A DNA stretch of 64,000 nucleotides from Staphylococcus phage vB_Sau_P68. Both the position numbers and the translations under genes were made by a program. Positions 56,022-58,640 of the stretch are shown piece by piece. Below the pieces are notes generated by a model. That model saw only the letters and a program-made list of their open reading frames with translations, was not told the DNA's origin and did not search any database. Position 1 is the first letter of the stretch, and the number at the start of each line of letters is the position of its first letter. Location: sequence record OL741057.1; one strand, 5' to 3'.

Positions 56022-57317
56022 TTATTTATAATTTTGTATATAGTCAATATAACTTATACTTTTTAGTGTATCACTTTTTTCCTGTTCTGTAGCTTCTCTA
56101 ATATTGTACCCTTTAACAGTGTTTCTTTTACCCTTAGCACAATCTACAATGGATGCTACATCTGAACTTATTCTTTTTGTCATCATATGCAAAGGCAACT
56201 TAATATCTTCTGAACCTTTAGTTGCTACATATACTTTAATTCTTTTATCTGTTATTGTTTTAGCTACTTCTGAAAAGTCTTCATCTTCATATCTCCAAAG
56301 ATAACCACATGATTGCTTTTTACTTCCTGATACACACCCTCTAATACTTGATGAAGGTAATCCTAAATTACTAAAGTATTCTTGTGCTTCTTTTAAAGTG
56401 TCAAATCTAATTTCTTCTAGTGTCTTAATATTTAATCCTACTACAGGTTTAAATCTTTTCTTAACCCCTCTACGTTTCATTAAACCTTTAACATTACCAA
56501 CACTCATATTAAATTTATTTGCAGTTTCTTCTGAAGAGTGTTCTTTATAGAATTCTATAATCTCTTTTTCATTTTCTTTATATTTTGTAAACAGTTCTAT
56601 TCTCTCAGTATAATTTAAATTAATTTCTAAGAACGAACTTATAGTATTTAATATGTCCTTTTTGTCCTCATTAGGATAATAGATATATAGTAACTTTATG
56701 TTATTATCTTTACAGTATTTTTCTTTTAGTGAATCTAGCTCTTGTATCTTTTCTAAGGGCGTACTCCATGTTCCAGTAGCTTGTTTAATATGTTGTTGCC
56801 CCATATATTCAATAGCATATTTATTACCATTTAATTCTATATAAAAATCTAATCTTTGTGGTCTCTCTAATCCTGTGTAGATAGATTTTTCACATATAAA
56901 TTCGATACCATTTTCTTTAAGTATAGTCTGTATAATTCTCTCTCCGATACTTTTCATATGGTCTTGAGGACAATTATTATTAGTATTGTTCTCAAAACTA
57001 TTCCATATAACATCCCATTTATTCCCTTGCGGTGATAGTAGTAAACATCTCTTTGTTGATTGCAGATTTTCAGGGTAGTTTATAATACTATACCCTCTAC
57101 TTTTAGCGTAAGAAGAAAAATATTTCTTTTTACCTTCTTCTGTAAGTTGTGTTAGTCTTATTTGTTTTAAGTTATTTAAGTTATTGTAGGACACGTAACA
57201 TTCACAACCTTTAAATTTACCTTCCAAAACAACACCTAAATGTTTTGTATCTTTTGCTCTACCTCTATATTCTACGATTTTTATATTTTTTTCTTTTGCT
57301 AATTTTTCAATTTCCAT
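56022..57317 (-). CDS. free-standing homing-endonuclease-like protein: N-terminal DUF559/Vsr-like PD-(D/E)xK nuclease motif plus C-terminal HTH/NUMOD-type DNA-binding modules (431 aa)
   Basis: Nuclease motif RLDFYIELNGNKYAIEYMGQQH. NUMOD3-like EHSSEETANKF and HTH NMSVGNVKGLMKRRG. The classic homing-endonuclease C-terminal module is FDTLKEAQEYFSNLGLPSSSIRGCVSGSKKQSCGYLWRYE. Confidence 0.6.
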   Translation of the reverse strand: MEIEKLAKEKNIKIVEYRGRAKDTKHLGVVLEGKFKGCECYVSYNNLNNLKQIRLTQLTEEGKKKYFSSYAKSRGYSIINYPENLQSTKRCLLLSPQGNKWDVIWNSFENNTNNNCPQDHMKSIGERIIQTILKENGIEFICEKSIYTGLERPQRLDFYIELNGNKYAIEYMGQQHIKQATGTWSTPLEKIQELDSLKEKYCKDNNIKLLYIYYPNEDKKDILNTISSFLEINLNYTERIELFTKYKENEKEIIEFYKEHSSEETANKFNMSVGNVKGLMKRRGVKKRFKPVVGLNIKTLEEIRFDTLKEAQEYFSNLGLPSSSIRGCVSGSKKQSCGYLWRYEDEDFSEVAKTITDKRIKVYVATKGSEDIKLPLHMMTKRISSDVASIVDCAKGKRNTVKGYNIREATEQEKSDTLKSISYIDYIQNYK

Positions 57318-57346: not shown

Positions 57347-57379
57347 ACTAATGATACTATATCATTAGTCTTTTGTCAA
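57347..57379 (-). promoter_or_regulatory. promoter (TTGACA-17-TATCAT) for the endonuclease gene, overlapped by a perfect 10-3-10 palindrome ACTAATGATA-cta-TATCATTAGT (putative operator)
   Basis: tgtcaa at 57374-57379 and atgata at 57351-57356. Palindrome at 57347-57369. Confidence 0.5.
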
Positions 57380-57412
57380 TAGAAAAGACCTAACTTTTAT
57401 TGTTAGGTCTAT
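57380..57412 (-). terminator. rho-independent terminator (AGACCUAAC-AAUAAAAG-UUAGGUCU followed by UUUCUAUU) ending the tail tube transcription unit
   Basis: Perfect 9-bp inverted repeat agacctaac/gttaggtct at 57386-57410. Confidence 0.6.
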
Positions 57413-57475
57413 ATTCTATAATAAATACGAACTTATGTTCTGGCTTTATCTGATGCGGTCAAGTACGAAAACGAT

Positions 57476-57538
57476 TTATTTATTTACAAACGCTACTTTG
57501 TAAACCTGTGTTATTTCACATGCACTAGCTTTCACTAC
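57476..57538 (-). CDS. putative terminal exon of the tail tube gene (...VVKASACEITQVYKVAFVNK*)
   Basis: Open frame of up to 20 codons directly after the second group I core. It ends with TAA just upstream of the terminator hairpin. The exact 3' splice site is undetermined. Confidence 0.3.
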   Translation of the reverse strand, partial: VVKASACEITQVYKVAFVNK

Positions 57539-57860
57539 GTGACTAGACTATTTGTTATCCCTAATTAGTAGGGCAAGGATTTTTCTTCTCCCAATAGCTT
57601 GGAGCTTTACTCTCATCTTATAATGAGATAGTCGTTGAACGTTCCTCTTATGATTTACTATCACTTAGAGTATTCGATGCTATACACCCATTGTACTTCT
57701 CCTTAGGATTTAACCTTAGAGTATCTCAATCATTTTTTCTACTTTCGTAACCTTCTAGTTTATTGTTTCCAATTCCTATGTGGTTGATTGAGCTTTAGAA
57801 GTTTCATAGCAGTTAACCCTTAATACTCACAGATTACTCTATGAGCAGAGTGTAAAATTC
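57530..57860 (-). ncRNA. group I intron 2 in the tail tube gene (ORF-less, approximate limits)
   Basis: R element GUUCAACGACUAU at 57628-57640 and S element AUAGUC at 57546-57551, forming P7 GACUAU/AUAGUC. P8-like hairpin CCCUACUAAUUAGGG. Q-like AAUCCUAAGGAG around 57700 and P-like GAAUUGGAAAC around 57770. Confidence 0.55.
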
Positions 57861-57904
57861 TCAATTTCCTCTGTCACTATTTCATTGGTCTGCCACGTCT
57901 CGTT

Positions 57905-58250
57905 ATAGTTCACTTATACCCTATCTCTCGATATATTTAAAGGGGTTAGACTGTCCCATGTCCCTTATTTATAAGGTGACTACCTATTACAGTCGTTGAA
58001 GCTTCCCACTCTCGTAGGCTTGCCTGCGGATTTCCTATTAATTGAGTACTTAGGACATTAATAATGTGTCGCTAGTTATTAATGCTTTTATCTCACCGTA
58101 TACTATCCAATTAATTTTTTCTGATTTCTCAACATTCACGCTTACTTTTTCAAGTTACGTTGTAGTTTAATTGGCTTTAAGGTGTTCCCGCAATTTCAGG
58201 TATTATTCGACTATACATTACTGTATAGAAGCAACAATTATTTATTGGCA
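57905..58250 (-). ncRNA. group I intron 1 in the tail tube gene (ORF-less, approximate limits)
   Basis: P2 hairpin CUAUACAG-UAA-UGUAUAG. P element AAUUGCGGGAA at 58185-58195 and Q element AAUCCGCAGG at 58023-58032. R-like UUCAACGACUGU at 57989-58000. P3 UACCUG/UAGGUA, P8 CCUUAUAAAUAAGG, P7 GACUG/CAGUC (57949-57954), and a P9 with GAGA loop. Confidence 0.65.
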
Positions 58251-58582
58251 CTACATCCGTGGTAACTAATGATAACTTGTTTAGTTAAATTATCTACTAC
58301 TAAGATATCAATGATATCTTTCTTAAGAATTTCTTCACCAAGTGAAGCATATCCTAAATCTGCAAAGTTTTCTTTTTTCATACGTAAACGTTCTACTGTA
58401 ATTGTACCTTCATAACGTAAGTATACGTGTTCTTGAGGCATGATAGAACCGATTTCGTATACACCAGTTGTACCGTATTCACGAGTACCTGATGCTGATT
58501 GTGCTCTTCCTACCGGTTTACCTTTAATCATAAGTAAGACGGTATTACCAGTATGGACGGTTTGTTTAGCTTCTGATGCCAT
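58238..58582 (-). CDS. tail tube protein, 5' exon (the ORF continues in-frame about 10-15 codons into intron 1 before the stop)
   Basis: 114-aa ORF directly downstream of the tail sheath gene. Its product is tail-tube-like (beta-rich, MASEAKQTVHTGNTVLLMIKGKPVG...). P2 and P4 of the intron begin within 45 nt of its stop codon. Confidence 0.65.
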   Translation of the reverse strand: MASEAKQTVHTGNTVLLMIKGKPVGRAQSASGTREYGTTGVYEIGSIMPQEHVYLRYEGTITVERLRMKKENFADLGYASLGEEILKKDIIDILVVDNLTKQVIISYHGCSANK

Positions 58583-58591
58583 CTGTATTCA

Positions 58592-58640
58592 CTCTCCTAA
58601 AGTATTCAAATTATATTAATAGGAGTACCCAATCTAGGTA
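58592..58640 (-). terminator. hairpin (GGAGUACC-UAGAUUG-GGUACUCC) between the sheath and tube genes; probable attenuator or partial terminator
   Basis: 8-bp perfect inverted repeat ggagtacc/ggtactcc followed by an A/U-rich tract. It is located between the gene stop at 58655 and the tube RBS. Confidence 0.4.

Follow-up and report, generated by a model that had tools for sequence, protein, structure and literature searches.

Tail tube genes with several introns are already established in phage Twort, with three, and in the phage 812 group, with two. Landthaler and Shub are said to have described the three introns of Twort orf142 in 1999 as self-splicing group I introns, and Lobocka reportedly provided in 2012 a further source for the two-intron tail tube genes of the phage 812 group. 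In phages 812, A3R, 676Z, Fi200W, and P4W, two non-coding introns of the tail tube gene are accompanied by an adjacent nuclease gene, and host-range mutants of phage 812 that lost both introns and the nuclease gene together are still viable (Botka et al., 2019, PMC6445280). Also relevant here are the group B (IS607-type) IStrons, for which BcISt1, CbISt3/4, and CboIStron were used in the comparison. They insert after sites ending in GG or AG, their last exon base is G, and their U-G pair lies one base pair further inside the intron (Tourasse, Stabell and Kolsto, 2014, PMC4227781). Splicing of BcISt1 after G was demonstrated by RT-PCR, and CbISt4 was reported in two C. botulinum phages, D-1873 among them (PMC4227781). 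The splice sites of IS607 IStrons are the transposon ends beside a TGGG motif (Zedaveinyte et al., 2023, preprint).

The window analyzed here, a stretch of 64,000 nucleotides, comes from a Staphylococcus phage of the Herelleviridae (Twortvirinae). Over its structural region the nearest record, PG-2021_19, reaches no more than 94% identity. The genes around the tail tube locus all lie on the minus strand, to which every position below refers, and their order is that of Twort (AF132670): tail sheath (60418-58655, 587 aa), tail tube, and a nuclease ORF of 431-437 aa. The preliminary description of this DNA had rightly noticed a tail-tube-like ORF of 114 codons (58582-58238), residues 1-113 of which match tail tube proteins from hundreds of Herelleviridae phages, and no ORF of 60 aa or more after it. 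The longest ORF in the approximately 830 nt between it and the terminator has only 38 aa. A ribosome binding site of the tail tube gene (AGGAGAG, 58592-58598) was read from the sequence, and its placement agrees with the ribosome_binding_site annotated in Twort AF132670 and in Stab23. PHROGs and PDB were informative for identifying the proteins of this locus, and a Pfam search matched no family for the tail tube protein.

Alignment with 812-K1, OPT-SC01, and vB_Sau_CG shows exactly two clean inserts in the tail tube gene of the window, and the exon junctions were placed by alignment to those of the three alleles that lack the respective intron. An intact relative, of the kind that the preliminary description proposed for comparison, aligns to the locus in three blocks: tblastn with Gp104 of phage 812 recovered residues 1-113 at 99% identity, and residues 114-130 and 131-142 at 100%. 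Exon 1 (58244-58582, 339 nt) encodes M1-N113 and ends in GCC AAU. It is followed by intron 1 (57911-58243, 333 nt), a mini-exon of 51 nt and 17 codons (exon 2, 57860-57910, N114-E130, NYNETWQTNEIVTEEIE), intron 2 (57472-57859, 388 nt), and exon 3 (57433-57471), which encodes F131-T142 and a TAA stop with the translation FSYLTASDKART. Both introns are ORF-less. The intact 142-aa allele of phage 812-K1 has the C-terminal end SANNYNETWQTNEIVTEEIEFSYLTASDKART. When both inserts are excised in silico the reading frame is restored, and the resulting 142-aa protein is identical, end to end, to PDB entry 8q01_A ("Tail tube protein") at 141 of 142 positions. Exon 1 joined directly to exon 3, by analogy with exon skipping in Twort, would stay in frame and give 125 aa. 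The junction-spanning peptides predicted from the spliced product are SANNYNETW and EEIEFSYLTASDK, and the predicted stretch for such peptides is SANNYNETWQTNEIVTEEIEFSYLTASDK.

This exon map redraws part of the preliminary description. A mini-exon between two intron cores does exist, but it has 17 codons instead of the proposed 15, the earlier frame having begun four codons late and run two codons into intron 2. The last exon proposed at that time (ACEITQVYKVAFVNK and a stop, 57523-57476) lies inside intron 2 and ends 65 nt upstream of the terminator; it was rejected because it has no homology to any tail tube C-terminus and falls within the covarying P9.1-P9.2 region. The region had also been called richer in G+C than the genome, which is weakly true, as the introns (35.1 and 34.3%) exceed the whole window (31.9%) but remain below the tail tube exons (36.6%). 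A blastn search with both introns as queries revealed no additional copies in the window.

Two ordered sets of group I core elements had been described on the minus strand, and the strings quoted for them are indeed found in that order. Comparison with intronless alleles, together with covarying folds, bears out the proposal that ORF-less group I introns split this gene, and sets their number at two. By its sequence and conserved pairing, intron 1 qualifies as a canonical group I ribozyme. It is a clean 333-nt insertion, absent from 812-K1 and OPT-SC01 and present in vB_Sau_CG, the phage reported to have no tmpA intron (PMC5526547). Its 5' splice site is preceded by U, and its 5' end reads AAAUAAUU-GUUG. 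P1 is formed by the exon end CAAU with the guide GUUG (58235-58232), leaving a U-G wobble at the splice site, and the 3' end (AAGUG) has a terminal G at 57911. The core comprises P2 (58228-58211), P4 (58194-58185, AAUUGCGGGAA, with 58032-58023, AAUCCGCAGG), P6 (58018-58005), a P7 of GACUGU with ACAGUC (58000-57989 with 57954-57946), P8 (57980-57960), and P9 (57944-57919). There are two GAGA loops and a large P5 extension, and P7.1 and P7.2 are lacking.

Relatives of intron 1, with 70-91% identity, occupy other codons of the tail tube gene: one base after G109 in phiIPLA-RODI, Romulus, and 184DA, and after N122 in Twillingate and 184DA. The guides of these relatives are altered to fit the new sites (GACC with GGUU; GUUC with GAAU). 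Six sequences of the family were aligned and evaluated with a hand-specified group I structure comprising P1-P9 and the P3/P7 pseudoknot. In this alignment 98.8% of cells are paired, compared to 31-40% when the partners are slid, and 25 of 68 pairs show compensatory changes, to which P7 and P9 contribute one each. P3 is invariant, so that within the P3/P7 pseudoknot the only compensatory change is that in P7, an A-U to G-C replacement in the window copy.

Intron 2 is found at the identical site in many Staphylococcus phages, including OPT-SC01, St14.GH, Stab23, PSU6, and BE06, and is absent from 812-K1 and vB_Sau_CG. The phages bearing it are plaque-forming isolates with one tail tube gene. 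Enterococcus Kochikohdavirus phages also carry members of its family, at the homologous codon boundary (STQ/FTYL, the slash marking the junction) of their tail tube gene, where intronless Enterococcus alleles confirm the junction. Other relatives (70-86% identity) split genes for a tail lysin, a portal protein, an exonuclease, and a siphovirus major tail protein, and in Staphylococcus phages the family occurs in four different host genes.

The architecture of intron 2 is of the IA2 type, which, going by its sequence and those of its relatives, makes it a group I intron. Its elements are P2 (57847-57824), P3 (from 57821, with 57581-57574), P4 (57811-57805 with 57684-57678), R/P7 (57640-57628, GUUCAACGACUAU), P7.1 (57627-57612), P7.2 (57604-57588), P8 (57573-57559), S/P7' (57553-57545, AAAUAGUCU), P9 (57541-57523), and P9.2 (57504-57483). 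RNAalifold, applied to an alignment of 12 family members, returned P2, P3, P4, P5 and its extension, P6, P7.1, P7.2, P8, P9, and P9.2, with compensatory changes in 62 of 89 pairs. In the model that also includes P7, as a pseudoknot, paired cells amount to 95.8%, compared to 32-44% with the partners slid, and 61 of 94 pairs show compensatory changes, a number equaled by none of 500 shuffles. P3 covaries in this family, as do P7.1 and P7.2, and P7 is nearly invariant across both intron families. The P2 sequence of the BE06 copy is wholly different and its pairing is retained. Folding of single sequences by minimum free energy, with z-scores of -1.6 and -2.5, added no useful information.

The Rfam search proposed in the preliminary description gave matches below the gathering cut-off of RF00028, which is 50 bits. 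Scans of the whole window, at the gathering threshold and at E<=0.01, returned no Rfam match. In a local scan of 1.4 kb, RF00028 aligned over its full model length to 57927-58262 (intron 1) with 32 bits and an E value of 5.3e-6, and weakly to 57523-57737 (intron 2) with 15.9 bits and an E value of 0.37. The same model gave 64-101 bits for the three introns of Twort orf142, the two of phage 812, and the four in the tail tube gene of a Silviavirus. Because both window introns score below the threshold, their group I membership was tested by comparison with relatives, as described above. Hits of the 1.4-kb scan to HrrF, SNORD91, group II D1D4, and a TMV pseudoknot (E 1.4-6.2) were taken as noise.

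The 5' splice site of intron 2 is the unusual part of this gene. The junction GAG/AAUUUU...AAAUCG/UUUUCG is the sole in-frame option that combines a terminal intron G (G57472) with a conserved protein, and the exon preceding it ends in G, not in the U expected of a 5' exon. From the sequence we thus predict the exact 5' splice site after this G. P1 would have only three base pairs (G-C, A-U, and G-C) between the exon GAG and CUC at 57850-57848. The bases 3' of GAG differ among copies (AAU here, AAA in Stab23, and AAUC in 184DA), and they therefore behave as a P1 loop rather than as exon. In those family members for which both exon ends are known, the sole in-frame junction with a terminal G always leaves G as the last exon base. 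The same holds at independent sites, in Enterococcus (CAG/UAAG...CUG/UUC), in tail lysin genes (AAAGG/UAAC...UAUGG/UAAA), and in PMBT8 (GGCGG/UACA...UAAG/UACU).

Copies of the family differ in the base pair beside the site. Intron position +1 is U facing a guide G in the copies that interrupt the Enterococcus tail tube gene and the genes for tail lysin, portal, exonuclease, and major tail protein, and A facing A in the Staphylococcus tail tube copies of the window and BE06. Staphylococcus tail tube copies of intron 2 have no wobble pair at or beside the splice site. With a P1 of three base pairs and this U-G pair absent, neither efficiency nor accuracy of 5' cleavage is guaranteed. Tentatively, and with slightly more doubt than belief, we suggest that intron 2 selects its 5' splice site without any U-G wobble, cleaving after G in a 3-bp P1. 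Even so, such an intron would have to function sufficiently well for many viable Staphylococcus phages to make their essential tail tube protein.

Intron 2 has several features in common with the group B IStron ribozyme. Both are of the IA2 type with P7.1/P7.2 and P9.x elements and an abnormal P1, and in both the 5' exon (UGAG/ here) and the intron end in G. However, the +1 U and its G partner of group B IStrons are both A in intron 2, the 3' end is UCG instead of CGG or CAG, and the interrupted gene encodes an essential virion protein of a lytic phage. An IS607 component (a serine TnpA or TnpB ORF) was searched for in intron 2 and not found, its longest ORF being 38 aa; lacking the IS component, intron 2 is an ORF-less relative of these elements and not an IStron. 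Downstream of its relatives in SapYZU04 and Fi4S2 lies an ORF whose N-terminal part is an HTH_OrfB_IS605 domain (E 2.7e-14 and 2.3e-13, respectively). In addition, blastn ties intron 2 to the group I intron annotated in Clostridium phage D-1873, and the matched stretch may lie in CbISt4.

Taking the evidence together, it is very probable that this tail tube gene contains two group I introns, predicted to be self-splicing, whose removal joins three exons into the message for a 142-aa protein. The exons are under purifying selection. For exon 3 in particular, other intron 2 carriers differ from the window by 3-7 synonymous codons, relatives as a whole by 3-8, and none by a nonsynonymous one, which argues that exon 3 is translated; the OPT-SC01 exon is identical to that of the window, and BE06 is an exception in having its stop codon two codons earlier. 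Splicing of intron 2 is thus strongly suggested by the sequences. It is quite unlikely, in our estimate, that only intron 1 is spliced and that intron 2 is a decayed remnant, in which case the protein would end in EEIENFTLCS at 136 aa and miss its last 12 residues. This would fit the 3-bp P1 with no U-G wobble at or beside the site, the low RF00028 score of intron 2, and the several GenBank records that annotate precisely a 136-aa ORF. It sits poorly with the exclusively synonymous changes of exon 3 among intron 2 carriers, with a core pairing kept through many compensatory changes (P2 of BE06, for instance), and with the Enterococcus homologue, which retains a downstream exon (FTYLTSAKVK) at the matching codon boundary. 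In addition, group B IStrons with a G-ending exon do splice in vivo (PMC4227781).

Very unlikely is the use of another 5' site in intron 2, either after GAGAAU, adding one Asn, or with both ends moved by one base, giving Glu-Ile-Ser in place of Glu-Phe-Ser. Either choice would bring a U to the cleavage site, or nearly so, as in canonical group I introns. Against this, the bases after GAG vary in the manner of a P1 loop; a one-base slide would make the intron end in U and not G, though its G-binding P7 is canonical; and Phe131 is conserved in all homologues. The U-ending sites considered (after GAGAAU, AAAUU, or AAUUUU) were discarded because copies vary, guide pairing is not conserved, or conserved residues would be lost. 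A distant guide, CUCAAU at about 57797 for the exon AUUGAG, was also discarded since it forms a covarying P5a helix with GAUUGAG. Close to negligible, finally, is the probability of a truncated but uninterrupted 114-aa tail tube gene with a non-coding spacer or a small-RNA locus behind it. Deposited annotations of relatives do give a 114-aa "tail tube protein", and the report on vB_Sau_CG points the same way, even though that phage carries intron 1. However, two blocks further downstream encode residues 114-142 in frame and with 100% identity, the solved virion protein has 142 aa, and the supposed spacer folds as two group I ribozymes supported by covariation, so that this reading is refuted as far as sequence can show.

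In the preferred reading, this tail tube gene, which is tmpA and the homologue of orf142, would be transcribed with both introns, and RNA self-splicing would then join the exons. In intron 1, an external guanosine would attack after U58244, and the freed exon would next attack after the terminal G57911. Intron 2, which carries no transposase or TnpB genes, is predicted to be spliced after the G of GAG (exon up to 57860, paired with CUC) and at its end, G57472. Judging from sites and folds, both introns probably self-splice. They would be selfish mobile inserts rather than regulators. One 100-nt stretch of the tail tube gene has differing combinations of introns, or none, across sister phages. 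It had been suggested that introns in this gene imply a splicing-dependent step in tail assembly. This idea finds no support, because close relatives carry intronless alleles or other intron combinations and phage 812 mutants that lost the introns are viable.

The parallel with Twort drawn in the preliminary description holds at the level of the gene, as Twort orf142 is the tail tube gene, lies in an equivalent gene order, and gives three RF00028 matches. In both phages the introns cluster within the final 35 codons of the gene, and none of them contains an ORF. However, Twort has three introns compared to two in the window phage, and no insertion site is shared: the Twort sites are after Y115, at a base inside the codon aligned with I129, and at a base inside the codon aligned with S137. 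Sequence similarity to the Twort orf142 introns is confined to P1-P2 and the P5 module; over P1-P2, intron 1 shares 84% identity with one of them. Twort introns have P7.1/P7.2, in contrast to intron 1, and reach 64-101 bits on RF00028; intron 2 belongs to a lineage other than theirs. Phage 812 is similar in that two ORF-less introns divide the gene into three exons, with a terminator, a promoter, and a nuclease gene downstream. Its introns are Twort-like, approximately 280 nt long, and score 78-92 bits, with insertion sites one base after T118 and one base after E130 (GAGU/). The second of these is one base downstream of the intron 2 site and uses a canonical U-G pair. The nucleases of the two phages are only partly homologous. 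Compared to these systems, the window introns occupy sites that differ from the known ones and represent lineages missed by current annotation.

Downstream of exon 3, the hairpin terminator already noticed in the preliminary description (57386-57410, a 9-bp stem and a T run in the terminator scan) would end the tail sheath/tail tube transcript, and phage 812 has an equivalent annotated terminator. A promoter scan found a sigma-70-like promoter (57351-57379, TTGACA-17-TATCAT, 11 of 12 matches), also with an annotated equivalent in phage 812, that serves the downstream nuclease gene. This free-standing gene (56022-57317, 431 aa), located outside both introns, matches PHROG 7140 "intron encoded nuclease" (E 8.8e-126). 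Twort ORF018, which has the equivalent position, shares 52% identity with its product over the full length, and orf104 of phage 812, a "putative group I intron-encoded nuclease", is partially homologous to it. Its Pfam matches are weak, including a weak I-HmuI NUMOD-like one. Homology and position mark its product as a candidate homing endonuclease that would serve the ORF-less introns. Their spread at the DNA level would then probably be promoted by this free-standing enzyme and not by a protein encoded within an intron.

The finding reveals neither a new kind of system nor a regulatory role for splicing. It has practical consequences for annotation, as dozens of Staphylococcus and Enterococcus Herelleviridae genomes annotate a truncated tail tube protein of 114, 118, or 136 aa, and several of these mis-annotated genomes stem from phage-therapy studies. 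The two intron types evade Rfam-based annotation, and the present exon map corrects such truncated calls. The main point of interest is the predicted G-ending, wobble-less 5' splice site of intron 2. It would extend the "splice after G" ribozyme, so far a feature of IS607-type IStrons, to essential virion genes of lytic phages, in copies that lack an ORF, and the loss of the adjacent U-G pair makes 5' splice-site choice in this lineage directly testable. The finding also adds to the view that the 3' end of the tail tube gene, beside a free-standing nuclease gene, is a hot spot for introns. This short region may have received three intron lineages, with retargeted guides, at at least eight insertion sites within approximately 30 codons, their spread perhaps driven by the neighboring nuclease. 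If so, the 3' end of the tail tube gene would be a natural test bed for splice-site choice.

Within the tail tube gene, the final ~35 codons form a hot spot for introns in staphylococcal phages 184DA, CIFT_MFB_MRSA13, 812 and Twort as well as in the window. There are three introns in 184DA (L003 1947-3037), four in Silviavirus CIFT_MFB_MRSA13 (L007 2836-3989) and two in 812 (L014 3475-4043). When 184DA, the Silviavirus, 812, Twort and the window are pooled, at least eight distinct insertion sites fall within codons 109-137, and guide sequences have been retargeted among related introns. The intron-bearing gene is immediately followed by a free-standing gene for a 431-aa nuclease (56022-57317, minus strand; PHROG 7140 match), which lies outside introns 1 and 2 and has its own promoter (57351-57379, minus strand). 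Twort ORF018 occupies the equivalent position and is 52% identical to this nuclease. The 431-aa protein may serve as a collaborative homing endonuclease.

Joining exon 1 (58244-58582) directly to exon 3 (57433-57471), with the 51-nt mini-exon omitted, keeps the reading frame and gives 125 aa. Exon skipping has reportedly been seen in Twort orf142, and an alternative 125-aa tail tube product through mini-exon skipping is therefore possible in the window by analogy. In GenBank, the tail tube CDSs deposited for comparison loci L001, L002, L004, L011 and L015-L017 are truncated (112-140 aa) because the introns are unannotated; Romulus_026 is tail tube exon 1, yet it is named “capsid protein”. The intron 1 copy of Golestan-105-M (L004 1958-2189) is only 232 nt long in a phage that is 95% identical elsewhere. 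Through a 101-nt deletion it lacks the 5' strands of P4 and P5 (AAAUUGCGGGAACACC...), and its ribozyme should be crippled, barring an assembly error.

Relatives of intron 2 are also found in other genes. In Sextaecvirus siphoviruses, the major tail protein gene, whose exons are unannotated, has several successive members of this family (PMBT8, L018 1-941; vB-SscS-F1, L023 266-654), with at least three ribozyme cores in succession inside the 941 nt of PMBT8. In the Staphylococcus myoviruses SapYZU04 (L012 257-932) and Fi4S2 (L020 208-841), a relative of intron 2 splits the recombination exonuclease gene and is itself followed by a TnpB-type ORF (HTH_OrfB_IS605), which is the architecture of IS607-type IStrons. 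Staphylococcus is absent from the entire text of the 2014 IStron survey (Tourasse et al., PMC4227781). About 140 nt downstream of the intron 2-aligning part of its portal-gene insert, StAP1 has a RAGATH-18 RNA (RF03064; L009 805-894) scoring 60.6 bits, above the gathering score of 44.9 bits.

Introns 1 and 2 themselves have in common an 85-nt P5-extension module (58095-58179 and 57713-57797, minus strand; 68% identity) containing ...GAAUGUUGAGAAAUCAGAAAAAAU..., and phages of Lactococcus, Enterococcus, Brochothrix and Bacillus also have introns with the same module. Such a shared distribution suggests that intron lineages exchange modules.
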